From assembly GCF_003019815.1 (NCBI RefSeq), contig NZ_CP027773.1, positions 5,019,324 to 5,083,323 of the forward strand: 64,000 bases of DNA, read 5' to 3'. Both the position numbers and the translations under genes were made by a program. The notes under the pieces were generated by a model. The model made no database searches and had not been told where the DNA came from. It saw only the letters and a list, made by a program, of their open reading frames with translations. Origin of the DNA: Variovorax sp. PMC12. GTDB lineage: Bacteria; Pseudomonadota; Gammaproteobacteria; Burkholderiales; Burkholderiaceae_C. This document shows, one piece after another, positions 25,425 through 38,021 of this stretch (position 1 is the stretch's first letter; each line of letters opens with the position of its first letter).

Positions 25425-26287
25425 TGCTGCAGCGGCTGCATGGACGATTCGAAGAAGGCCGTCAGCGCCTTGCGGTAGGCGTTGCCGAAGCGCAGCGTCG
25501 TCATCGGCTCGAGATGTCCGGCGCCTTGCACCTCGATCAGCCGCTTGGGCTCGCGCGCGTCGGCCAGCAGCCGCTTCGAATGCTCCACGGGAATCACCTG
25601 GTCGGCCGTGCCGTGAATGAACAGCAGCGGAATCGGCGACACAGCCGCCACGTACTTCGACGCCGCATAGTCGTCGCTCACCAGCAGGCCGGCGCCCTTG
25701 AACTTGTCGTTGGCAATCGAGGAATACGAATAGAAGGTCGACTCGATGGCCGCCGCCTTCACGCCCGCGCGGTTGCCCGAGCCCACCACCGCGATCGCAT
25801 TGGTGCCGCCCAGGCTCTGCCCGAAGACGAACAGCCGCTCCGGGTCGACGTCCTGGCGCGAGCGCACGTAGTTCAGCGCGGCGTTGGAATCTTCGAACAC
25901 GCCCTTGGGCTCCGGTTTGCCCTCGGACTGGCCGTAGCCCCGGTAGTCGAAGACGAGCACGTTGTAGTCCTGCTTGGGCAGCCAGGCCACGAAGCGCCAA
26001 TGCGTGCTCATGTTCTGCGCATTGCCGTGGAAATGCACCACCGTGCCCTTGGCCTCCTTCGGGTTCTTGCGGTCGGCCGCGGGCAGGAACCAGCCGCTCA
26101 GCCGCGTGCCGTCGGCGCTGGTGAACTGCACGGGCTCGTAGCGCATGCCCAGCACGTCTGGCGTCTCGTAGCGCACGTTGTCGGGGTAATAGAACATCGA
26201 CTGCACGCAACCTGCCAGCAGCAGAGGCAGCGCGCACAGCGCGAGTTTTCCGCACCATCGGCGGATCGGGCCGGTGCCGATGGTCAT
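25421..26287 (-). CDS. Alpha/beta-hydrolase lipoprotein
   Basis: Lipobox LLLAGC after [27 protein letters not shown] nucleophile elbow. ATG at 26287 overlaps the exonuclease stop. Confidence 0.75.
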
Positions 26288-26862
26288 GGCTTTTCTGCGC
26301 CCTTGGCGGCCGCGCGGTTCTCCGCGAGCATGTTGCAGAAGAGGGCGCCTTGCTCGATCGCGTCGTCGAGCGCCACATGCGTGTGCGGCATCCCGGGGTC
26401 GAACCAGCGGCGCGGCATCGCGCGCTTGGTGCTGTCGCGGTAGTCGAGCTGGAGCATCGCCATCGCGAACGACTTCACGTCGAGCGCCGAGTGGCTGAAA
26501 GGGCTCTCGCCCGCGAAGCGCATCAAATACCAGTAGACGAACAGGAAGTCGAAGCCCGCGGGGTACGCGACGAACACGGGCCGCGCGGGCAGGCCCTTGA
26601 GCCAGCTCACGTAGTTCTTCATGGCGTGGGCGGGGTCCTGCAGGTCGGTGCGGCAGGCGGCCCATGCCTCAGGTTGGGTCTTCCACCAGGCGGCGGTCTT
26701 CGGGTCGGCTTCGGCGCCGGGCAGCGTGTGCAGGTTGGCGCTGAAGGTGGAAAGCAGTTGCTTGTCGGCCGTGTAGGCGGCCGAGCCGAAGCTGAGCATC
26801 GAATGCGGGCCCGGGATGGGGCCGTCGGATTCGACGTCTGTGCTTATGTAGATTTCTGGCAT
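26284..26862 (-). CDS. DEDDh 3'-5' exonuclease (Rv2179c-like exoribonuclease family)
   Basis: 192 aa with DxE (ISTDVESDG), YxxxD and HxxxxD (HVALDDAIE) motifs typical of DnaQ-like DEDDh exonucleases. Confidence 0.65.
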
Positions 26863-26889
26863 GGGTGTAGGCAGGTCGTTGGGGCTCGC

Positions 26890-28167
26890 TCATTGCGAGT
26901 CGGCGGGGATCAAACGCTTCCACCACGGCTGCTTCGCCGGTGCGGTGGCCGGGGATGCAACAAAAGCCTTGCGGGCCCTGGCGCGAGTGCGCAGCTTTTC
27001 GATGAGGTCTGCGCTTGCCCACACCGACGGCTCGCCTTCGAGCTGTTCGAGCGCCCACCGTATCTCGGACTCTGCCGCTTCGCACATGGCTTCGCCTTTG
27101 ACCGCACCTTGCGTTACGGCCAACTGCTGTTGCGGGTCGCCGTTGCCGAACCAGAAAGTACATGCGGCGATGTACGAGAAAACTGCGGCCTTCATGGGCG
27201 CGTCGTCTGGGCCGGCTTTCCTTGTGGACGCCAAGTGCCGCCCCAGGTCATGCTGTACGCCGAGCAGGCTGTCCACCATTTCGTCGCAGGTCAGCGGCAG
27301 ATTGAAATCCTGTTGCAGCAGTTGCGCCCACAGCACCTTGTCCAAACGGTCCTGCAACGGGAATTTCTTGTCGAAGCCGATGGCCGAGGCGTAGGCCTCG
27401 ACATTGGGATAGAGGGCCTGAGCGCAGAAGGTCGCGAATGCCGCAGCCTTCGGGTTCGAGAGCTTCGACAGCCGGGGCGAAAAGGCCTGGGAGAGGCGAC
27501 TCTGCGCTTGTGACTCGACGACCTGCCGGATGTTCTGCTCCACCCAGTGCAGGTACCAGTCATTGAAACCCATGCGGGTTCCATCTTCTTTCAGGAAGGG
27601 TTTGATGCCCTCGTTGTCCGCTCGCAGGTCGCGCCAGACCGTACCTGCCAGAGGCCCTGTCACGACCAGCCAGTTGCGCAGGGCGCAGCCTTCATGGCAG
27701 ATGGGTATGGCGCCGTCGGTGATGCTGGTGGCGTAGTAGTCGCTTTCAAGCTTCCTTTCCCAAGCTTCGTGCATCCGGTCTTGTTCTTCGACGGGCATGT
27801 CTTCCGGCGGATCGGGCTGCTGGCGCCAGAAGTCCTCAGGAAGGTTCCATGCGTCGCGCAGCGGGAACGGCCTGGACAGGTCTCCGATGAGTGCGTAGCC
27901 CTCGTCCCAACGGCAAAGGTCGTGGCTCCTGTCGTGCATGCCGAGCGGAAACACGCCATATGCCGGGCCCGCACCACCGTTTCCGATCTCCGTGATGAAC
28001 CTGCGGTACTCATCGGGGAATCTGCACCCGTGCTTGGCTTCCACCTGTGCGACCTCTTCTTCGGAAAGTGGCGGATTCAGGTCGTACCAGTGCGACTTCG
28101 CCGCAAAGCAACTGCAGTCCAGATCGAGCCGCTTGAGTGTCTGAAGACGGGACAGGATGTCGGTCAC
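26890..28167 (-). CDS. SMI1/KNR4 (SUKH-1) domain protein with a roughly 230-aa C-terminal extension
   Basis: N-terminal SUKH signature (..HWYDLNPPLSEEEVAQVEAKHGCRFPDEYRRFITEIGNGGAGPAYGVFPL..). 425 aa. GTG start with RBS AAAGGA. Confidence 0.65.
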   Translation of the reverse strand: MTDILSRLQTLKRLDLDCSCFAAKSHWYDLNPPLSEEEVAQVEAKHGCRFPDEYRRFITEIGNGGAGPAYGVFPLGMHDRSHDLCRWDEGYALIGDLSRPFPLRDAWNLPEDFWRQQPDPPEDMPVEEQDRMHEAWERKLESDYYATSITDGAIPICHEGCALRNWLVVTGPLAGTVWRDLRADNEGIKPFLKEDGTRMGFNDWYLHWVEQNIRQVVESQAQSRLSQAFSPRLSKLSNPKAAAFATFCAQALYPNVEAYASAIGFDKKFPLQDRLDKVLWAQLLQQDFNLPLTCDEMVDSLLGVQHDLGRHLASTRKAGPDDAPMKAAVFSYIAACTFWFGNGDPQQQLAVTQGAVKGEAMCEAAESEIRWALEQLEGEPSVWASADLIEKLRTRARARKAFVASPATAPAKQPWWKRLIPADSQ

Positions 28168-28190
28168 GACGGGTTAAGTCCTTTTGCTTG

Positions 28191-28547
28191 TTACGCGATG
28201 CCGAGGATCGACGACACCGAGCGGTGGAGCTCTTCGACGAGTTCCGGGTCCATGTATTTGTACTCGTCCGGAATGTCGAGCACATGGATCGGCTTGCCTC
28301 CCAGCATTCGCGTGAACTCCGCCACAAGCCGCGACTTGTGCTTTTCTTCCATCACCAGGATCACGTCGGCCCATTCGATGTCGTCCACAGACACCGTGTG
28401 CCGCGCATTCGGGCTGGTGCCGGCCGAGCGTGCGCAGATAAGGGGATGCCGGCGCCAGATCTGCTCCGCGGTCGGGCTGCGCCATTGATTTCGGCTGCAG
28501 ATGAAGAGAACGTTGCGAACGGGTGAGGTCGATGGTTTTTCGGGCAT
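28191..28547 (-). CDS. Low-molecular-weight phosphotyrosine-phosphatase/ArsC-fold phosphatase
   Basis: P-loop CX5R(S): VLFICSRNQWRS near the N-terminus, and an Asp-Pro general-acid region (DIPDEY). ATG at 28547 chosen because the longer form overlaps ligT. Confidence 0.6.
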   Translation of the reverse strand: MPEKPSTSPVRNVLFICSRNQWRSPTAEQIWRRHPLICARSAGTSPNARHTVSVDDIEWADVILVMEEKHKSRLVAEFTRMLGGKPIHVLDIPDEYKYMDPELVEELHRSVSSILGIA

Positions 28548-28557
28548 GAATGAATAC

Positions 28558-29028
28558 TCAGGAGGTCGCCTCGGGCAACGCAAAGACATGCAAGTCCCGC
28601 CAACGCCCTGACGAGTTCTCCATCAGCGCGACCTCGGTGCAATGCGCATGCACAGCGCCAGATGCAAGAAGCCGGGTGCCCAGTTCGACGGCAGCATCTT
28701 CCGCATCGCGCACGTTGCCGTGTGCCACTGAAAGATGCGGAACGACGCCTTCGTGTTCGCCGCCATATGGCGGGAAATCGGGAAAGGCCTTCGCGAGCGC
28801 CAGCGTCATCTCGATGAAAGGGGCGGCGGGCTCGGGCGCCAGATACGCGGTCTCGGGAAACCGCCCGACCTTGCCCAGCGAGAACTCGAACGACGGCGTC
28901 TGCGCGAGCACGTGCCGCGCACTGTCCAGCACGTCTGCCGTGATCAGCGCGGGGTCCATGAAGGGAACAAGAAGCGTGATGTGTGCCGGCACGCCGAGCG
29001 CCACGGTCGTAGCGGCGGCGCAGATCAC
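28558..29028 (-). CDS. 2H phosphoesterase, LigT/ThpR-like 2',3'-cyclic phosphodiesterase (RNA 2'-5' ligase family)
   Basis: Two H-x-T/S-x motifs (HITLL and HLSVA) with the correct spacing. 156 aa. Immediately downstream of rtcR. Confidence 0.75.
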   Translation of the reverse strand: MICAAATTVALGVPAHITLLVPFMDPALITADVLDSARHVLAQTPSFEFSLGKVGRFPETAYLAPEPAAPFIEMTLALAKAFPDFPPYGGEHEGVVPHLSVAHGNVRDAEDAAVELGTRLLASGAVHAHCTEVALMENSSGRWRDLHVFALPEATS

Positions 29029-29115
29029 CGGCGATGGGCTCGGCGGCGGGAACCTTCACGACGAATGCGGAGATGGCCATCGGGCGGAGGATAGCCCATC
29101 GATGGCGCACTCCGA

Positions 29116-30735
<1,620 letters not shown>

Positions 30736-30870
30736 GGATATGAAACTAGCTAAATTTATAGATTTTGCGGGATTTTATAGGTATGGATCTAGTTCTCGAA
30801 ACACGTCGAAACGGAATTTCTCCTTTCCCGTCAATGACTTGCATCCCCGATCGTGAAAACTGCCCAAGGC

Positions 30871-30886
30871 TGGCACGCCGGCTGCA
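30871..30886 (+). promoter_or_regulatory. Sigma-54 (-24/-12) promoter TGGCAC-gccgg-CTGCA driving the rtc operon
   Basis: Matches the TGGCAC-N5-TTGCW consensus, with GG and GC at the proper spacing. Located 135 nt upstream of the divergent rtcR and about 540 nt upstream of the first rtc-operon CDS. Confidence 0.7.
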
Positions 30887-30896
30887 ATGGATATCC

Positions 30897-31424
30897 CGTC
30901 AGGATGCAGTCCATCCACTCGCAGGTGCCGCGTAGAAGCGGCCCGGTGCAGCAAGCCAGGCAAGTCCTTGGGTTTGCCGTATGCCGTGGCTGGGCTGCCT
31001 GGCAACTGAACTTGATTCAGTCCCGCTCATGGTTGAGCGCCGTGCTAACCACATGGAGCCGCGGGTTCGATTCCCGCAAAAAACCCGGCGGTGCCTGCAC
31101 CGCCACCTGATGGGGGCGAAAGCCCCTCCGCCCCGGCACACCGGAGCGATGGCGCAGGGCAAACATGCCCTGCGCCGCGCGCCAAAGTGCCAAGCGCAGG
31201 CGGCTTGCGCACCGCGTGCGTGGCAAGGAACTGCGTGTGGCCATCGAAGGCGAGGCAGGTGACGGCGTTGCAAAAGCGACGAGGGAGGCACCTGCCGAGC
31301 CGGGCGACCGCCGCACGTCAGGCCTTGGCTGCCGCAGTGCCCGCCGCCTGCCCTTTCGAGGGCCTAGACCGAATGACTGAAGACTGAACGAAGAAACGAA
31401 CCGAATAACGAGTGGGAGAAAAAG
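30897..31424 (+). ncRNA. Long structured 5' leader or candidate ncRNA of the rtc operon, containing a tRNA T-arm mimic (GCGGGTTCGATTCCCGC, 31061-31077) and several strong hairpins
   Basis: Perfect T-stem-loop consensus (GGGTTCGATTCCC). GNRA hairpin GGGGC-GAAA-GCCCC (31113-31126). 7-bp hairpin (31087-31104). 10-bp hairpin GGCGCAGGGC-aaacat-GCCCTGCGCC (31151-31176). Anticodon-like stem-loop CTGAA-cttga-TTCAG (31006-31020). No credible protein-coding potential. Boundaries are approximate. Confidence 0.45.
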
Positions 31425-32576
31425 ATGTTGGGCTTCAACCGAATCACGATCAAGAAGAACGAACGCGCGCTGCTGCTTCGCAACGGCGATTTCGAGCAAC
31501 TGCTGGGCGCCGGAAAGCACCGGGTGTTTTCGGGTTTCGACAAGATCCAGCTGCAGCGCTTTGCCCTGACCGAGCCGGCTTTCGAGCACGAGCTGGTCGA
31601 CTACTTCCTGGCACAGGAGCCTGAGCTGGTCGAGCGCGAGTTCGTGCATGTGTCGCTCGGCGAAACCCAGGCCGGCCTGCGCCTGGAGGACGGCGTGCTG
31701 GTGCAGATCCTGCCGCCCGCCACCCGCAAGCTGTACTGGCGCGGCCTGCGCGAACAGCGCATCGACGTGATCGACGTGGCTGAAGACGTGCGCCTGCCGG
31801 CCGAACTGGTGTCGAAGCTGCAGAGCGTGGCGCTGCGCCCGCGTGCGGTGGCCGGCCTCGACGGCGTGCTGCTGGTGCAGGTTCCGGAGTTCCACGTCGG
31901 CGTGCTGACGCTGCAGGGCCAGATGCAGGAGCTTCTGGCGCCGGGCAACCACGGTTTCTGGCGCTTCAACCGGCAGGTGGCAGTGACCTGCGTGGACATG
32001 CGCTCGCAGATCGCCGAAGTGAGCGGCCAGGAAATCCTGACCCGCGACAAGGTGGGCCTGCGGCTGAACATGTCGGCGGTGTGGCGCTTCACCGATGTGC
32101 GGCAGGCGATGGCGCAGATGCCGAAGCCGGCCGACCATGTGTATCGCGAGCTGCAGTTCGGGCTTCGCGCCGCGGTGGGCGAGCAGACGCTCGATGCGCT
32201 GCTGGAGAACAAGGCGGCCATCGACCAGACGGTGCTGGCGCAAGTGCGCGAGCGGCTGGAAGGCTCCGGCATTGCGCTGGAAAGCGTGGGCGTGAAGGAC
32301 ATCATCCTGCCCGGCGAGATGAAGACCATCCTCGCCCAGGTGGTGGAGGCCGAGAAGTCGGCCCAGGCCAACGTGATCCGCCGCCGCGAGGAAACCGCGG
32401 CCACGCGCTCGCTGCTGAACACCGCCAAGGTGATGGAGGGCAACCCCGTCGCGCTGCGGATGAAGGAACTCGAAACGCTGGAACGGGTGGCCGAGCGGAT
32501 CGACAAGATCTCCGTGATCGGCGGTCTGGACCAAGTGCTCAATGGGTTGGTGACGCTTCGGCCGAACGCTCCTTGA
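31425..32576 (+). CDS. SPFH/band-7 (stomatin/prohibitin-like) domain protein with an extra N-terminal domain
   Basis: C-terminal SPFH region (..ILTRDKVGLRLNMSAVWRFTDV..VKDIILPGEMKTILAQVVEAEKSAQANVIRRREE..). RBS GGGAGAAAAAG. First gene of the rtc operon. Confidence 0.8.
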   Translation: MLGFNRITIKKNERALLLRNGDFEQLLGAGKHRVFSGFDKIQLQRFALTEPAFEHELVDYFLAQEPELVEREFVHVSLGETQAGLRLEDGVLVQILPPATRKLYWRGLREQRIDVIDVAEDVRLPAELVSKLQSVALRPRAVAGLDGVLLVQVPEFHVGVLTLQGQMQELLAPGNHGFWRFNRQVAVTCVDMRSQIAEVSGQEILTRDKVGLRLNMSAVWRFTDVRQAMAQMPKPADHVYRELQFGLRAAVGEQTLDALLENKAAIDQTVLAQVRERLEGSGIALESVGVKDIILPGEMKTILAQVVEAEKSAQANVIRRREETAATRSLLNTAKVMEGNPVALRMKELETLERVAERIDKISVIGGLDQVLNGLVTLRPNAP

Positions 32577-32631
32577 ACTCCGGACTCGAGAAGGATTGAC
32601 TGGCGCCGAAGAGGCGCCAAGGGAGAAGAAA

Positions 32632-33126
32632 ATGACCGAAGAAGAAATTCGCGCACACGACCTCATCGCCTATGACCTGCACGACGCGGGCTGGGCCGAC
32701 GTGAGCTTCCGCGCCGCTTCCGAGCGACTGGGCTTCGCGGTGTCCTACCTGCACGATTCGCTCGGCGACCTTGCGCGCATGGGCCTGACCCTGCAAAAGG
32801 GTGCCGAGCACGCCGAGGCCGTGTTCATGGACGAGCCGGGCGAGGTGATCCTGCTGGTCTCGGGTGCTTGGGACGTGTTGCAGTACGAGCTGCGCCAGTA
32901 CCGTGACTGGGCCAGCTGGGGAATGGTCGGTGTGCATGACCATGAAGTGGTGGCGCGCGGAGAGATTTCGCGTACCGAGCTGGTCCGGAACATCCATGCG
33001 ATCCTGCAGCGCATCCACGATGAAGTGGGGCCGAAGCGCTACCGCGAGATGTGGGTGGAGCACGACTTCCCGCTGCAGGACTACGAACGACTGTCGATCG
33101 CGCTGTACAAGCGCGCGATGACCTGA
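32632..33126 (+). CDS. Hypothetical protein (164 aa) between the SPFH gene and rtcB
   Basis: ATG at 32632 with RBS GGGAGAAG. Acidic protein with no recognisable motif. Confidence 0.55.
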   Translation: MTEEEIRAHDLIAYDLHDAGWADVSFRAASERLGFAVSYLHDSLGDLARMGLTLQKGAEHAEAVFMDEPGEVILLVSGAWDVLQYELRQYRDWASWGMVGVHDHEVVARGEISRTELVRNIHAILQRIHDEVGPKRYREMWVEHDFPLQDYERLSIALYKRAMT

Positions 33127-33160
33127 ACAGAGGAGTGAAACGATGATGAAAGAAGAAAAA

Positions 33161-34378
33161 ATGAACTACAACCTGCACGAAGTCGAGAACGGCGTGCCCG
33201 TGAAGATGTGGACCCGCGGCGTGCCCGTGGAGCCCGAGGCGCAGAAGCAGCTGGAGAACGCAGCGCGCCTGCCCATCGTGTTCAAGCACATTGCGGCCAT
33301 GCCCGACGTGCACTACGGCATCGGCGCCACCGTGGGTTCGGTGATCCCGACCTTCAAGGCCATCATTCCCACCGCGGTGGGCGTGGACATCGGCTGCGGA
33401 ATGATGGCGTGCAAGACCACGCTGCATGCCAACGACCTGCCCGACAACCTGGGGCCGCTGCGCTCGGCGATCGAGAAGGCCGTGCCGCACGGCTCGAACC
33501 CCAAGCGCATGGGCCGCGACAAGGGCTCGTGGGAGACGCCGCCGAACGAAACCGACGTGGCATGGGGTGCGCTGAAGGACGAGTTCGACGCGATCTGCGA
33601 AGACTACCCGCGCCTGAAGAACACCAACAACCACAAGCACCTGGGAACGCTGGGTACGGGCAACCACTTCATCGAGGTGTGCCTGGACGAGGCGGGCTCC
33701 GTGTGGTTCATGCTGCATTCGGGTTCGCGCGGCGTGGGTAACGCCATCGGCACGCACTTCATCGAGCTCGCCAAGAAAGACGCCGAGCTGCACCAGCGCA
33801 ACCTGCCCGATCAGGACCTGGCGTACTTCGAGGAAGGCGCCCAGTACTTCGGCGACTATGTGCGCGCCGTGGGCTGGGCCCAGAAGTTCGCGCGCGCGAA
33901 CCGCGAAGTGATGATGCAGCGCGTGGTAGCGGCCGTTCGCAAGGTCATCACCAAGCCTTTCGAGGCGCATGTGGAAGCGGTGAACTGCCACCACAACTAC
34001 GTGAGCCGCGAAACGCACTTCGGTGAAGACGTGCTCGTCACCCGCAAGGGCGCGGTGAGCGCGAAGGCCGGCGAGTTGGGGATCATCCCCGGCAGCATGG
34101 GCGCCAAGAGCTTCATCGTGCGCGGAAAAGGCAACCCCGAGAGCTTCATGAGCTGCAGCCACGGTGCCGGTCGAAAGATGAGCCGTACCAAGGCGAAGAA
34201 GCTCTACACCGTGGCCGACCAAGTCGCCGCGACCGAAGGCGTGGAATGCCGAAAAGACGCCGACGTGATCGACGAGATCCCGATGGCCTACAAGGACATC
34301 GACGCGGTGATGGAGGCGCAGCAGGACCTGGTGGAGGTGGTCTACACGCTCAAGCAGGTTGTTTGCGTGAAGGGGTGA
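33161..34378 (+). CDS. rtcB: RNA-splicing ligase RtcB (3'-phosphate/5'-hydroxyl RNA ligase)
   Basis: Near-collinear with E. coli RtcB from MNY.. to the C-terminal ..YTLKQVVCVKG. Metal ligands and nucleophilic His region conserved (HGSNP.., GTGNHFIE, CHHNY, SCSHGAGR). ATG at 33161 (MNYNLHE) chosen to match the canonical N-terminus. Confidence 0.92.
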   Translation: MNYNLHEVENGVPVKMWTRGVPVEPEAQKQLENAARLPIVFKHIAAMPDVHYGIGATVGSVIPTFKAIIPTAVGVDIGCGMMACKTTLHANDLPDNLGPLRSAIEKAVPHGSNPKRMGRDKGSWETPPNETDVAWGALKDEFDAICEDYPRLKNTNNHKHLGTLGTGNHFIEVCLDEAGSVWFMLHSGSRGVGNAIGTHFIELAKKDAELHQRNLPDQDLAYFEEGAQYFGDYVRAVGWAQKFARANREVMMQRVVAAVRKVITKPFEAHVEAVNCHHNYVSRETHFGEDVLVTRKGAVSAKAGELGIIPGSMGAKSFIVRGKGNPESFMSCSHGAGRKMSRTKAKKLYTVADQVAATEGVECRKDADVIDEIPMAYKDIDAVMEAQQDLVEVVYTLKQVVCVKG

Positions 34379-34475
34379 GAGGGTGAGGTCCAAGTACGGC
34401 CTCACGATGGCGCTGTAGAGGGAGAGCTATCGATAGGCTGCGCCTTCGCAGCGCTGTATTGCGAAGGGCTGAAAA

Positions 34476-35117
34476 ATGAAGAGCAACAAGCAACGCCGCG
34501 CCGAGATCAAGGCGCACCGCCGCGAGCGTGCTGCCGCTCTGGCAGCACGCTCGCGCCTGCCGGATGTCCGGCTGCCGAAAGCCGACTTCGCCGATGCACT
34601 CGGTTGCGAGCCGGCGGATCGAGCTGTTCTGCAGCAACACAACAACACCTACGGCGTGCTGCCTGACTTCTATGTCGCGCGTTCATTCATCTGCCGCGAT
34701 TGCGGTGCCGACGAGGTATGGACGGCCAAGCAGCAGAAATGGTGGTACGAGACGATTCAGGGTCACATCGACAGCCGTGCCGTGCGATGCCTCGCATGCA
34801 GGCGCGCACGGCGCGAACGTTTGCGAGCCGTTGCGCCTGGCGCCGACCTTCTGCTCGAGAAGACGTGTCGACTGCGTGCGTTGGGTGCGGCAAAGCCGAG
34901 CGTTCAAGCCAGGGCCGAAATCGAGGCGGCATTGCAAAGCAAATGGTGGAGCCTGCGTGTCGTGGCGATCCAGGCAATGGGGCGCTGGGGCGGTGAAGAG
35001 AACCTCGCACGGCTACACGCGTTCATGGCGTCTCGTCCGGAGGGAGGTCGCCGATACTTCGGTTGGGAGCGCGTCGCCGCGGACGCTGCAAGAAGCGCAT
35101 TGATGCGCAGGGAGTGA
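34476..35117 (+). CDS. Hypothetical Zn-ribbon-containing protein (213 aa)
   Basis: C-x2-C ... C-x2-C (CRDCGADEVW ... CLACRRARR), Arg/Lys-rich N-terminus. Sits in the operon between rtcB and the RNase Z-like gene. Confidence 0.5.
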   Translation: MKSNKQRRAEIKAHRRERAAALAARSRLPDVRLPKADFADALGCEPADRAVLQQHNNTYGVLPDFYVARSFICRDCGADEVWTAKQQKWWYETIQGHIDSRAVRCLACRRARRERLRAVAPGADLLLEKTCRLRALGAAKPSVQARAEIEAALQSKWWSLRVVAIQAMGRWGGEENLARLHAFMASRPEGGRRYFGWERVAADAARSALMRRE

Positions 35118-35125
35118 TCAACGAG

Positions 35126-36082
35126 ATGATGAAACTGACTTTTCTGGGTACCTCCTCCGGTACCCCCACGCGCCACCGCAACGTCTCCGGCCTCGCCGTG
35201 CAGACGGTGCTCGGCCCGGACTGGTTCCTGCTCGACTGCGGCGAGGGCACGCAGCATCGCGTGCTGCAAACGCCGCTGTCCCTGAACGACCTGGCCGCCG
35301 TCTGCATCACGCATGTGCACGGCGACCACTGCTACGGCCTGCCGGGCCTGCTCGCGAGTGCGGGCATGAACAAGCGCACGAAGCCGCTGAAGCTGATTGC
35401 GCCGCTGCCGGTGTGGGAGTGGTTCGAGGCGACGCGCGCGTTGACCGATCTGCATCTGCCCTACGAAGTCGAGCATGTGGATATCGGCGGACCGCTGTTG
35501 GTGTATGAGGTGCCGGGCCTGCGCATCGAAAGCCATGCGCTGATGCATCGTGTGCCCAGCCACGCTTACCGCATGCAAGTCGAGACGCGGCGCGTGCGGC
35601 TGAAAGCGGACGCATTGCGCGCCATCGGCCTGCCACCCGGCCCCGCATGGCGTGCGCTGCAGCAGGGCGAGGACATGCCTTTCAACGGCGGCATGCTGCG
35701 CAGCGCCGACTACACCGAGACCCAGGTCGAAACGGTTGCCGCCGTTGTGGGCGGTGACAACGCCAAACCCGCGTTGCTGCACGACGCCTGCAGGGGCGCG
35801 CAACTGCTGGTGCACGAGGCCACCTTCACGCAGGAGGCACTCGACAAGGTCGGCCCCGGGCCGATGCACAGCTCCGCGCGCCTGCTGGCCGAGTTCGCGC
35901 AGGCGGCCGAAGTGCCCAACCTGATCCTCACGCACTTCAGCGCGCGCCACCAGAACGAAGAGGGCATGGCTGCTTTGATGGCAGAGGCGCAGGCGCACTA
36001 CCGCGGCCATGCGTTCCTGGCCAGCGACCTGGATGTCTACGAGCTCGACAGTGCCGGCAACGTGACCGTCACCCGGGCTTGA
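35126..36082 (+). CDS. Metallo-beta-lactamase-fold ribonuclease, RNase Z/RNase BN-like
   Basis: HxHxDH motif (ITHVHGDHCYGLPGLL) and RNase Z-like length (318 aa). N-terminus MMKLTFLGTSSGTPT matches the RNase Z start. Confidence 0.7.
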   Translation: MMKLTFLGTSSGTPTRHRNVSGLAVQTVLGPDWFLLDCGEGTQHRVLQTPLSLNDLAAVCITHVHGDHCYGLPGLLASAGMNKRTKPLKLIAPLPVWEWFEATRALTDLHLPYEVEHVDIGGPLLVYEVPGLRIESHALMHRVPSHAYRMQVETRRVRLKADALRAIGLPPGPAWRALQQGEDMPFNGGMLRSADYTETQVETVAAVVGGDNAKPALLHDACRGAQLLVHEATFTQEALDKVGPGPMHSSARLLAEFAQAAEVPNLILTHFSARHQNEEGMAALMAEAQAHYRGHAFLASDLDVYELDSAGNVTVTRA

Positions 36083-36108
36083 CGAGAAAAGAAGACAAGA
36101 AGAAAGAC

Positions 36109-36960
36109 ATGAGTACCGAAGAATTCCTGCGCTCTGCCCACCCGATCGAGCCCGCCGTGCGCACGCAGATCATGGAGGCCCTGAGCGACATCGAAGCAAC
36201 GCATGACGTGACCGTGCTGTTCGCCTGCGAATCCGGCAGCCGCGGCTGGGGCTTCGCCTCGCCCGACAGCGACTACGACGTGCGCTTCATCTACGTCAAC
36301 CGCCTGCCGTGGTACCTCACGGTGGCACCGCGTCGCGACGTGATCGAGGTGCCGATCAGCGGCGACCTCGACATCAACGGCTGGGACCTGCGCAAGGCGC
36401 TGGGCCTGATGCGCGAGTCGAACCCGACGCTGCTCGAGTGGCTGCGCTCGCCCATCGTCTACCGCGACGACGCGGTGGCGATGCCGCGCTTTCGCGCGCT
36501 GTCGGAGGCCGTGTTCTCCAACGCGCGCGGCTGGCATCACTACAGCTCGATGGCGAAGAAGAATTTCCGCGAGCATCTGCAGGCCGACGAGGTGCGCTAC
36601 AAGAAATACCTCTACGTGCTGCGACCTCTGCTGGCCGCGCGCTGGATCCGCTCGCGCGCCGGCGTGCCGCCCATGCGCTTCGCCGACCTGGCGCAGCACA
36701 CGCTCGACCCGGTGCGCGACGCGGCGCTGATCGCCGAGATCAACGCGCTGCTCGAGGTGAAGATGCGCGCCGGCGAAGCCGCGACCAGCCCGCGCTGGCC
36801 GGGTATCCACGCGTTCATCGAAGCCGAGCTGGCGGCCAATGCAGCCGAGCCGGTGACGCCGCTGCCGTCGGCCGATGGTTCGGGGCTCGATGCGTTCCTG
36901 TACGACACGGTGCTGCGTCTCGAGGCGGTGAACAAGAAGAAGGAGGCCGTCCATGATTGA
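36109..36960 (+). CDS. Pol-beta-superfamily nucleotidyltransferase (RtcB-associated NTase)
   Basis: GS...D-x-D nucleotidyltransferase motif (LFACESGSRGWGFASPDSDYDVRFIYV). ATG at 36109 preceded by a purine-rich RBS. The track start at 36079 is a TTG. Confidence 0.65.
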   Translation: MSTEEFLRSAHPIEPAVRTQIMEALSDIEATHDVTVLFACESGSRGWGFASPDSDYDVRFIYVNRLPWYLTVAPRRDVIEVPISGDLDINGWDLRKALGLMRESNPTLLEWLRSPIVYRDDAVAMPRFRALSEAVFSNARGWHHYSSMAKKNFREHLQADEVRYKKYLYVLRPLLAARWIRSRAGVPPMRFADLAQHTLDPVRDAALIAEINALLEVKMRAGEAATSPRWPGIHAFIEAELAANAAEPVTPLPSADGSGLDAFLYDTVLRLEAVNKKKEAVHD

Positions 36961-37990
36961 ACTCGACGGCTCCCAAGGCGAGGGCGGCGGCCAGATCCTG
37001 CGCACCAGCCTCGCGCTGTCGGTGGCCACCGGCCAGCCGCTGGCCATCGAGAAGATCCGCGCGGGCCGTGCCAAGCCGGGCCTGATGCGCCAGCATCTGG
37101 CGTGCGTGAACGCTGCCGCCGCGATCAGCGGTGCGCAAGTCGAAGGCGCCGAGCTCGGATCGCAGTCGCTGCGCTTCACGCCCTGCTCGGTGCGCGCGGG
37201 CGAGTACCGCTTCGCGATCTCGGGTGCGGGCAGCTGCATGCTGGTGCTGCAGACCGTGCTTCCGCCGCTGCTGCTGGCTGGCGCACAGAGCCGCGTGCAC
37301 CTGAGCGGCGGCACGCACAACCCGATGGCGCCGCCGTTCCATTTCCTGGAGCGCGCTTTCGCGCCGCTGGTGCGCCGCCTGGGGGCGGACCTGCAACTGA
37401 CGCTTCGCCGCTGCGGCTTCTACCCGGCCGGCGGCGGCGAGGTGGAGGCGGTTATCGTGCCGGCGGCCGGCCCGCTGCAGCCCTTCGACCTGACCGCGCG
37501 CGGCGCGCACCGGGCCGGTCACGCGGAGTGCCTGGCACCGGGCCTGCCGCGCCATGTGCCGACGCGCGAACTCGACACGCTGGGCGGCGCGATGGGCTGG
37601 TCCGGCGAGCAGCTGCGCCTGGGCGCGGTGCGCCAGAACGAAGGGCCGGGCAATGCGCTGATGGCCACGCTGGCCTACGAACACGTCACCGAGGTGTTCA
37701 CCGCCTTCGGCGAAAAGTCGATGAGCGCGGAGCAGGTGGCGCATGGCCTGGCCAGGGAGCTGCGCGCGTTCCAGAAGAGCGAGGCGGCGGTCGGACCGCA
37801 CCTCGCTGATCAGCTGGCGCTGCTGCAGGCGCTTGCCGCGTGGCAGGGCAGGAAGGCCTGCGCCTTCACCTGCAGCGAGGTGACGGAGCACACGCGCACC
37901 AACTGCGCGGTGATCGAGCGCTTCCTGCCCGTGCGCTTCGCCATCGCCGAGGGCGGCGATGCCTGCAGGGTGCAGGTCGCTCCGGCCTGA
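36953..37990 (+). CDS. rtcA: RNA 3'-terminal phosphate cyclase RtcA
   Basis: MIELDGSQGEGGGQILRTSLALS.. is the RtcA signature N-terminus. 345 aa. Overlaps the NTase stop. Confidence 0.9.
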   Translation: MIELDGSQGEGGGQILRTSLALSVATGQPLAIEKIRAGRAKPGLMRQHLACVNAAAAISGAQVEGAELGSQSLRFTPCSVRAGEYRFAISGAGSCMLVLQTVLPPLLLAGAQSRVHLSGGTHNPMAPPFHFLERAFAPLVRRLGADLQLTLRRCGFYPAGGGEVEAVIVPAAGPLQPFDLTARGAHRAGHAECLAPGLPRHVPTRELDTLGGAMGWSGEQLRLGAVRQNEGPGNALMATLAYEHVTEVFTAFGEKSMSAEQVAHGLARELRAFQKSEAAVGPHLADQLALLQALAAWQGRKACAFTCSEVTEHTRTNCAVIERFLPVRFAIAEGGDACRVQVAPA

Positions 37991-38021
37991 GCGGAAAACT
38001 CCTTTCCGCTGTCGTGGTTGA
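37991..38021 (+). terminator. Possible intrinsic terminator after rtcA (GCGGAAA-actcc-TTTCCGC followed by a T-containing tract)
   Basis: 7-bp stem hairpin at 37991-38009 followed by TGTCGTGGTTG. The T-run is weak. Confidence 0.35.

Follow-up and report, generated by a model that had tools for sequence, protein, structure and literature searches.

RtcB joins RNA ends carrying a 2',3'-cyclic phosphate or a 3'-phosphate to 5'-OH ends, and RtcA regenerates the cyclic ends. In the rtcR-rtcBA genes of Escherichia coli and the rsr-yrlBA-rtcBA genes of Salmonella, rtcB and rtcA are divergent from rtcR and sigma-54-dependent, and the regulator RtcR consists of a CARF domain, an AAA+ domain and a helix-turn-helix (HTH) domain. 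The Salmonella regulator responds to damaged tRNAs through its CARF domain (PMC7790460, PMC9650030). In a second group of systems, a Band-7 (SPFH) protein and a Band-7-associated tRNA-like RNA (b7a-tRNA) are associated with RtcB; a 2018 preprint, in its part on these systems, credits the description of this association to Burroughs and Aravind 2016, and says of the b7a-tRNA that it strongly resembles an authentic tRNA and that it had not been validated experimentally (10.1101/312249). The rtcR-rtcB-rlaP-rtcA operons of Pseudomonas contain RlaP, which adds one or two nucleoside monophosphates to RNA 3' ends (PMC12776372), and the SPFH protein PaFlo8, a Band-7 orthologue, is embedded in the rtc locus of P. 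aeruginosa (PMC13086221). Here, we analysed an enlarged operon of this type, located beside rtcR in a 64-kb stretch of DNA from Variovorax sp. PMC12 (this whole stretch is hereafter called the window, and all coordinates are window positions unless a related locus is named).

We consider it likely that the plus strand of this locus carries a lineage-specific version of the known RtcR/sigma-54-controlled Band-7/tRNA-like RNA/RtcB/RlaP/RtcA RNA-repair operon, extended by accessory genes, and that the genes downstream of rtcR on the minus strand are lineage-specific neighbours. As in the Band-7/b7a-tRNA/RtcB systems of Pseudomonas, rtcR is divergent, a sigma-54 promoter and a tRNA-like element lie upstream of a soluble Band-7 gene, and RtcB, RlaP and RtcA are encoded in the same order. 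The domain set of RtcR (CARF, AAA+ and HTH) and the sigma-54-dependent, divergent arrangement of rtcB and rtcA are also those of E. coli and Salmonella. An earlier note on this stretch of DNA, aware of SPFH and nucleotidyltransferase partners of RtcB, had marked this particular combination as worth testing; the core architecture of the plus side is already described in the literature, including the part of the preprint on Band-7 systems (10.1101/312249, PMC12776372, PMC13086221).

The differences lie in the RNA element and in the added genes. Unlike most of its Band-7/b7a-tRNA relatives, which have two tandem modules with paired acceptors, the window has a single element without an acceptor stem, and unlike those systems it adds an RNase Z homologue, a 213-aa form of the zf_Tbcl protein and a cassette encoding a 164-aa protein with a predicted CdiI-like fold. 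Compared with the operons of E. coli and Salmonella, the additions are RlaP, the RNase Z homologue, the zf_Tbcl protein and the cassette gene. A tRNA-mimicking non-coding RNA encoded within the operon is shared with Salmonella, but the window is without a Ro60/TROVE gene and without a match to the YrlA RNA, and Band-7 stands in place of Ro60. Particular to the window are the single acceptor-less tRNA-like module, the RNase Z paralogue, the CdiI-like cassette and a clade-specific, disrupted 2H phosphoesterase gene beside rtcR.

Gene content and conserved core of the operon

Domains were assigned by hidden Markov model searches against Pfam, NCBIfam and PADLOC, together with sequence matches to the PDB (Table 1). 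The 12 open reading frames (ORFs) named in the earlier note were all present where it had placed them (12/12), and nearly all of its domain assignments were supported, including those of the LigT/2H phosphoesterase, the RNase Z and the nucleotidyltransferase (RlaP); the weakest assignment was that of the low-molecular-weight protein tyrosine phosphatase (LMW-PTP), whose match was confined to the P-loop. As the note had proposed, rtcR stands beside an enlarged sigma-54-driven operon encoding a ligase, a cyclase, a nucleotidyltransferase and an RNase Z-type nuclease. Its count of at least ten RNA-end-processing genes was too high: the four secure ones encode RtcB, RtcA, RlaP and the RNase Z homologue, a further three are uncertain, and the Band-7, 164-aa, zf_Tbcl and SUKH proteins are not end-processing enzymes.

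Neighbourhood conservation was then assessed in 80 genome loci anchored on Band-7 orthologues with 54-92% identity, which span Variovorax, Acidovorax, Burkholderia, Ralstonia, Pseudomonas, Rhodocyclales and Brenneria; each locus was searched with all window proteins. An RtcB gene, which in the window is co-directional with Band-7, follows the Band-7 gene in 63 of the 80 loci, and a divergent rtcR orthologue lies upstream in 54. Homologues of RlaP and RtcA were detected in 33 and 32 loci, respectively. A zf_Tbcl homologue was found in the same operon, either before or after rtcB, in 17 loci, to which Pfam and BLAST added two more (at least 19/80). Based on these counts, the conserved core consists of rtcR, the promoter with its tRNA-like leader, Band-7, RtcB, sometimes zf_Tbcl, RlaP and RtcA. 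The neighbourhood conservation that the earlier note had named as a check holds for RtcB, RtcR, RlaP and RtcA, but not for the genes on the minus side, none of which was found in more than two of the 80 loci.

The Band-7 protein belongs to a family with more than 7900 homologues, and the near-identical ones are from Variovorax; three contigs encode a protein identical to that of the window. No transmembrane segment was predicted in it, the maximum Kyte-Doolittle average over 19 residues being 1.37. A GSFTGA loop is seen in the translation of RtcR. A PDB sequence search with RlaP gave no match. An alternative TTG start of rlaP, at 36079, overlaps the stop codon of the RNase Z gene, and the start of rtcA overlaps the stop of rlaP by 8 nt (ATGATTGA); the latter is the only certain start/stop overlap on the plus side. 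Immediately 3' of the rtcA stop codon, a hairpin (GCGGAAA-ACTCC-TTTCCGC, 37991-38009) probably marks the end of the operon; it was not called by the terminator scan because its T run is weak.

Table 1. Features of the rtcR locus, with positions in the window; for tRNA arrays, positions in related loci are given as locus:positions
Feature	Position	Strand	Evidence and remarks
DEDDh exonuclease, CBASS Exo/Cap18-like type	26284..26862	-	192 aa; PADLOC PDLC00753 2.6e-30, positions 6-181/184
Protein with N-terminal SUKH-1 domain	26890..28167	-	425 aa; Pfam SMI1_KNR4 2.8e-8, profile positions 1-66/125
Short putative LMW-PTP/ArsC-like phosphatase	28191..28547	-	118 aa; CX5R(S) P-loop CSRNQWRS
2H phosphoesterase gene (LigT/ThpR superfamily), frameshifted	28558..29080	-	Pfam 2_5_RNA_ligase2 2.2e-22; motifs HITL and HLSV
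rtcR	29116..30735	-	539 aa; CARF-type RtcR domain (Pfam PF06956 1.8e-81), sigma-54 AAA+ activator domain (Sigma54_activat PF00158 5.4e-50), C-terminal HTH; PADLOC RtcR--CARF_AAA_HTH 9e-258
Sigma-54 (-24/-12) promoter TGGCACGCCGGCTGCA	30871-30886	+	Divergent from rtcR, upstream of repair genes
Structured leader, promoter to Band-7 start codon	30897..31424	+	About 530 nt; folding
Degenerate band-7-associated tRNA-like element	31015-31087	+	Covariance-model match
Band-7/SPFH ('slipin') protein	31425..32576	+	383 aa; Pfam Band_7 2.4e-28
Accessory protein, predicted CdiI-immunity-like fold	32632..33126	+	164 aa; strain-specific cassette
RtcB 3'-phosphate/5'-OH RNA ligase	33143..34378	+	411 aa; Pfam RtcB 2.5e-128, full length; SHGAGR histidine motif
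zf_Tbcl protein	34476..35117	+	213 aa; Pfam zf_Tbcl 1.6e-14; basic N-terminus, treble-clef CxxC...CxxC domain, helical C-terminus
RNase Z homologue, metallo-beta-lactamase (MBL) fold	35126..36082	+	318 aa; HVHGDH motif
RlaP, Pol-beta nucleotidyltransferase (RNA-ligase-associated)	36109..36960	+	Pfam RlaP 2.2e-90; GS-x10-DxD motif
RtcA RNA 3'-phosphate cyclase	36953..37990	+	Pfam RTC 2.4e-77, RTC_insert 2.4e-8; HLADQ histidine motif
tRNA arrays upstream of Band-7/RtcB	L069:5680-8720, L012:340-2710, L006:8150-8720, L019:6900-7700		Related loci

Sigma-54 promoter and structured leader

The sigma-54 promoter indicated in the earlier note was borne out by both its sequence and its conservation. TGGCACGCCGGCTGCA is the sole match to TGGCAC-N5-YTGCW in the 64-kb window, where 0.2 matches would be expected by chance, and in an alignment of 53 related rtcR-to-Band-7 intergenic regions conservation reaches 90% or more in its GGCAC and TGCA columns. 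About 30-40 nt upstream of this promoter, the block CGTCAATGACTTGC (30828-30843) is highly conserved over the same 53 spacers and may represent a candidate binding site for RtcR.

The spacer between rtcR and Band-7 is 600-730 nt long in approximately 50 of the 53 loci. In the window, the leader that extends from the promoter to the Band-7 start codon folds with a minimum free energy of -268.8 kcal/mol (z = -6.4 versus shuffled sequences), in agreement with the structured leader of the earlier note, which had missed the tRNA-like element inside it. The rest of the Variovorax-type leader is likewise conserved and structured: the consensus fold, calculated from four Variovorax-type leaders only, contains 139 pairs, 15 of them with compensatory changes. 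An Rfam search of the island formed by the genes on both sides of rtcR, with E values up to 1, gave only a chance-level microRNA match outside the leader and no match to YrlA, and at gathering scores the whole window gave no Rfam match. An ORF within the leader (30981-31262) was set aside as a gene because it overlaps the conserved tRNA-like element. A Ro60/Y-RNA system was also considered and rejected, as none of the 12 proteins matches TROVE and YrlA is absent from the window; a Ro60-like gene is present in one relative, the locus L034 described below.

tRNA-like element in the leader

Three arms are intact in the element within the leader: a D-arm of tRNA type (GCTCATGGTTGAGC), an anticodon-like arm and a T-arm of canonical form (GCGGGTTCGATTCCCGC). 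Similar elements are widespread; nearly every locus has one such module, or two of them in tandem, upstream of its Band-7 gene. Almost all related spacers contain one or two copies of the T-loop motif, with paired copies about 70-75 nt apart, and ARAGORN predicted one or two tandem tRNA-like genes in 20 of 30 spacers of the relatives. The anticodons of these tRNA-like genes are erratic or absent, and in many of the genes that arm ends in a GAAA or UUCG tetraloop. One Pseudomonas relative has a first module that scores 57.8 bits with the Rfam tRNA model, and in this relative the end of the first module together with the beginning of the second matches YrlA's tRNA-like domain in part, at 33.4 bits, which is below the gathering score.

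A covariance model (R1) was derived from an alignment of 46 second-module copies from outside Variovorax. The cloverleaf of these copies covaries, with 89% of cells paired and changes on both sides in 14 of 21 pairs; the covariation score of the alignment was 0.412, compared with 0.154 for shuffles and at most 0.125 for slid controls. Against this model, the element of the window scores 33.3 bits (E about 1e-9). The acceptor stem of the window element does not form, as five of seven acceptor pairs are non-standard and 4 nt are absent from the 5' strand. ARAGORN detected no tRNA anywhere in the window, and the Rfam tRNA model likewise had no match in it.

Three other Variovorax-type loci match the tRNA-like model weakly a second time, between the Band-7 gene and the next gene (L001:11384-11405, L002:11348-11409 and L081:4244-4265). 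It covers only the T-arm in L001 and L081, and the whole model is aligned in L002. The covariance model gave no such second match after the Band-7 gene of the window.

Band-7/RtcB loci without rtcR also exist, in metagenome-assembled genomes (MAGs) of Aquabacterium, Rubrivivax, Ideonella and similar organisms. In these loci, 6-15 apparently genuine tRNA genes with differing anticodons lie on the same strand, 1-4 kb upstream of b7a-tRNA/Band-7/RtcB (examples in Table 1). Similar tRNA arrays were found by the covariance model in at least 15 loci.

Proposed action of the operon

A tRNA-damage or anti-ribotoxin role is a reasonable reading for operons of this type. For the Variovorax operon, we infer the regulation, the RNA processing, the enzyme substrates and the formation of a scaffold from the literature and the gene content, as follows. 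RtcR would sense RNA damage through its CARF domain and would activate the sigma-54 RNA polymerase at 30871-30886. The transcript would begin with the leader of about 530 nt, which holds the degenerate tRNA-like module, and four enzymes would be made: RtcB for sealing, RtcA for the cyclic ends, RlaP for nucleotide addition at 3' ends, and the RNase Z homologue, which would either trim tRNA-type 3' ends or process the leader. The tRNA-like RNA may join the soluble Band-7 protein in a ribonucleoprotein scaffold for these enzymes, as Y RNA does with Ro60. That one operon combines RlaP, an RNase Z paralogue and a tRNA mimic suggests activity on the 3' ends of tRNAs.

The Variovorax variant overturns nothing in the picture of these systems. 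It provides handles on what bacterial RtcB operons repair and on the role of Band-7 and its tRNA-like RNA: one is a natural tRNA mimic without an acceptor stem, and another is a set of near-identical strains that differ only in their accessory cassettes and in the intactness of the 2H gene, with which comparative experiments would be easy to design.

Accessory genes and variable slots

The RNase Z homologue, present in three of the 80 loci, matches TIGR02651 over nearly the whole profile (7.8e-71, positions 1-301/302) and PDB entry 2cbn_A over residues 2-305 (5.3e-48). Its score of 238.6 bits against the NCBIfam equivalog cut-off of 292.95 is below the level of the housekeeping orthologue, and the protein should rather be regarded as a diverged paralogue. 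Precomputed annotation of the relatives lists an Apyc1 family; we rejected an identification of the MBL protein as an Apyc1-type cyclic-nucleotide phosphodiesterase, as it is RNase Z that it matches over its full length, and the phosphodiesterase model covers the N-terminus only.

The ORF encoding the 164-aa protein had no family match in Pfam, NCBIfam or PADLOC, and none was found by PDB sequence search. Its family is very small (55 clusters, mostly from Variovorax), and a homologue was detected in two of the 80 loci. The confident AlphaFold model of the protein (predicted local distance difference test score, pLDDT, 92.6) gave as its top structural matches the immunity proteins CdiI, that of Enterobacter cloacae first and that of Burkholderia dolosa, with modest scores. 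The predicted fold is closest to these two proteins, but unlike CdiI the 164-aa protein is without sequence similarity to them and without an adjacent CdiA toxin, and lies in an RNA-repair operon. Distant homologues of the protein were located in Eikenella, in one Cyclobacteriaceae genome and in the assembly GCA_037025325.1, where they occur in unrelated contexts, beside neither toxins nor RtcB. The protein was also considered as a conserved partner of Band-7; this was rejected, as the genes that occupy its slot in other genera do not resemble it and its distant homologues are found elsewhere.

The accessory genes behave like cassettes, because their presence or absence differs between the window and L092, one of the three contigs with an identical Band-7 protein, whose DNA is 97-98% identical to the window. 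The two are collinear except at two places. The segment with the 164-aa gene (32637-33117) is present in the window only and not in L092, and a 2.3-kb block with ORFs of 42 and 694 aa is present between rlaP and rtcA in the relatives only (L092:15055-17264; window junction 36917-36956). Neither ORF had a Pfam match. Slot occupants therefore vary between strains that are 97% identical, as they do between genera. Elsewhere, the slots hold a ClpP-like SDH protease, HEAT-repeat proteins, a MoxR ATPase with a von Willebrand factor A (vWA)-metallopeptidase, and a Ro60-like TROVE/vWA protein; further occupants are Abi_C, DUF5677, DUF4275, a THAP4-like protein and several ORFs without a family match. 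In the Burkholderiales MAG locus L034 (13855-15459), the Ro60-like protein (TROVE and Ro60 vWA) shares a Band-7/RtcB operon with a homologue of the 164-aa protein, and therefore the Ro60 and Band-7 versions can coexist.

This variability raises the question of whether repair is combined with immunity. The slots may be landing sites for exchangeable, toxin-specific immunity-like genes, such as the gene for the CdiI-like protein in the window, the 694-aa ORF in another slot of 97%-identical strains and unrelated small ORFs in other genera. A single RNA-damage-sensing regulon would then couple the mending of cleaved tRNA or rRNA, in which damaged tRNA 3' ends would be rebuilt by RlaP and the RNase Z homologue, to the neutralization of incoming RNase toxins; we regard this extension as speculative and rather improbable. 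In a related form of the idea, the slot genes, the 164-aa gene among them, and the SUKH gene would provide orphan immunity against incoming RNase toxins of the contact-dependent growth inhibition (CDI) or colicin type, and RtcB, RtcA, RlaP and the RNase Z homologue would mend the damage done. The CdiI proteins at the top of the structural matches, led by that of E. cloacae, whose cognate toxin cleaves 16S rRNA, agree with this proposal, as do the SUKH domain, which defines a recognized superfamily of immunity proteins, the presence/absence polymorphism of the slots between 97%-identical strains, and the occurrence of Abi_C and other small ORFs in the same slots of other loci. Set against these are the distant homologues of the 164-aa protein, which adjoin neither toxins nor RtcB, the mutually unrelated slot proteins of different genera, and a search for toxin-type genes within 10 kb of the Band-7 gene, which found none. 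On balance, a joint repair and immunity function is doubtful.

Genes downstream of rtcR

The earlier note had treated the 12 genes on both sides of rtcR as one island for the healing and sealing of RNA ends, in which the minus-side genes act together with RtcB and RtcA. In favour of such an island, the domains are compatible with RNA-end chemistry, the minus-side genes are tightly packed on the rtcR strand immediately after rtcR, and a 2H gene follows rtcR in both Variovorax and Acidovorax cavernicola. The census did not support its two-sided extent. The exonuclease, LMW-PTP-like and 2H genes were found in two of the 80 loci each, in Variovorax only, and are thus absent from 78/80; the SUKH gene was found in none (0/80), V. 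gossypii and V. boronicumulans included, and is present in the 97%-identical relatives. The search for a recurrent gene downstream of rtcR was likewise negative: no family was common to more than four loci, and those were always close relatives.

Gene coupling also failed to delimit the proposed island. The earlier note had pointed to ATGA-type coupling at several junctions. True start/stop overlaps were detected at the RlaP/RtcA junction (ATGATTGA), between the exonuclease stop and the start of an abhydrolase gene (ATGA), and between the abhydrolase stop and the start of an ornithine-cyclodeaminase-like (OCD) gene (ATGA); the last two run beyond the left end of the island. Coupling that is equally tight thus continues past this boundary into genes without a link to RNA, and therefore it cannot delimit an RNA-repair module. 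No terminator-like site was detected by the scan of the minus strand from rtcR to the downstream genes. The minus-side genes, together with the abhydrolase and OCD genes, are probably co-transcribed with rtcR, which is the simplest reading because no terminator-like site intervenes and the sigma-54 promoter faces the opposite way. None of the minus-side genes lies downstream of that promoter.

The identification of a DEDDh exonuclease in the earlier note was sound: in addition to the PADLOC match, the protein matches PDB entry 7t2s_A (6.7e-17) and contains the motifs DVE, GFD and H-x4-D, and the Pfam Rv2179c-like family matched at only 5.6e-4, below its cut-off. The full-length PADLOC match, the 7t2s_A match and the DEDDh motifs resemble those of the Exo/Cap18 enzymes of the cyclic oligonucleotide-based antiphage signalling system (CBASS). 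Unlike these, the window exonuclease lies between the SUKH and abhydrolase genes with no CBASS gene nearby, and in the 97%-identical relatives the genes with Pfam annotation up to 10 kb from the Band-7 gene include no CD-NTase or other CBASS family. Exo/Cap18-type enzymes are reported to cleave 2'-5'-linked dinucleotide intermediates and to be inactive on DNA and RNA (10.1101/2025.03.04.641389; 10.1101/2022.01.04.474952). The inactivity of the studied members of this family on RNA and DNA (10.1101/2025.03.04.641389) speaks against a part for the exonuclease in RNA-end processing. The LMW-PTP-like protein matches Pfam LMWPc at 1.3e-5 over profile positions 1-40/144 only, its top PDB match is weak and covers the P-loop region (2fek_A, 2e-4), and its gene is linked to rtcR in Variovorax loci only.

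The 2H gene is disrupted in the window, which the earlier note had missed. It is 523 nt long, compared with 528 nt in a 97%-identical relative, and one copy of a tandem CGACC is gone (28990-29030); the resulting frameshift splits the first 25 codons from the remainder, and homologues are 175 aa long. The 5-nt loss is either a real frameshift or a sequencing error. A 2H gene lies directly after rtcR in the window, V. gossypii, V. boronicumulans, the near-identical contigs and A. cavernicola, at a distance of 35 nt from the rtcR stop in the window and 24 nt in A. cavernicola. In A. cavernicola, the 2H gene is followed by the same abhydrolase and OCD-like genes that flank the island in the window, and no LMW-PTP-like, SUKH or exonuclease gene was found in that locus. 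Homologues of the 2H protein in Hydrogenophaga and a 2H paralogue in Variovorax occur in unrelated neighbourhoods.

Taken together with the restricted distribution of the minus-side genes and the lack of any recurrent family, the coupling to unrelated genes, the position of the sigma-54 promoter, the disrupted 2H gene and the exonuclease type make a single two-sided island quite unlikely. The four genes downstream of rtcR form a Variovorax-specific gene string rather than a conserved or demonstrably RtcR-induced part of the system. The LMW-PTP-like, SUKH and exonuclease genes are neighbours whose membership is not supported, and the membership of the 2H gene is uncertain. The locus corrects the assumption that genes belong to the system by virtue of flanking rtcR.

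It is similarly hard to credit that the 2H protein, perhaps with the LMW-PTP-like phosphatase, ends the signal by removing the 2',3'-cyclic-phosphate ends of the RNA fragments that activate RtcR, and so resets the response as ring nucleases do in CARF signalling: the short distance between rtcR and the 2H gene in both the window and A. cavernicola, the conservation of both HxT/S motifs and the regulation of RtcR by damaged tRNA through its CARF domain (PMC7790460) would fit, but the linkage is limited to one clade, the 2H gene is frameshifted in the window, and the 2H and PTP-like genes are unpaired outside Variovorax.

Some observations weigh against our preferred interpretation, in which a lineage-specific repair operon faces unrelated minus-side neighbours. 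Lacking an acceptor stem, the Variovorax element may behave unlike the b7a-tRNA of other genera, or may be decaying. The census, being anchored on Band-7, is blind to rtcR loci without Band-7. The retention of the 2H gene right after rtcR in Variovorax and A. cavernicola fits a functional link within this clade, and the minus-side genes may yet prove responsive to RNA damage.

The base composition of the minus strand region also differs from that of its surroundings. The G+C content is 0.61-0.62 at 27000-28999, a segment extending from the SUKH gene across the LMW-PTP-like gene into the 3' part of the 2H gene, compared with 0.66-0.70 in the flanks, a difference that would fit a recent acquisition of this segment.

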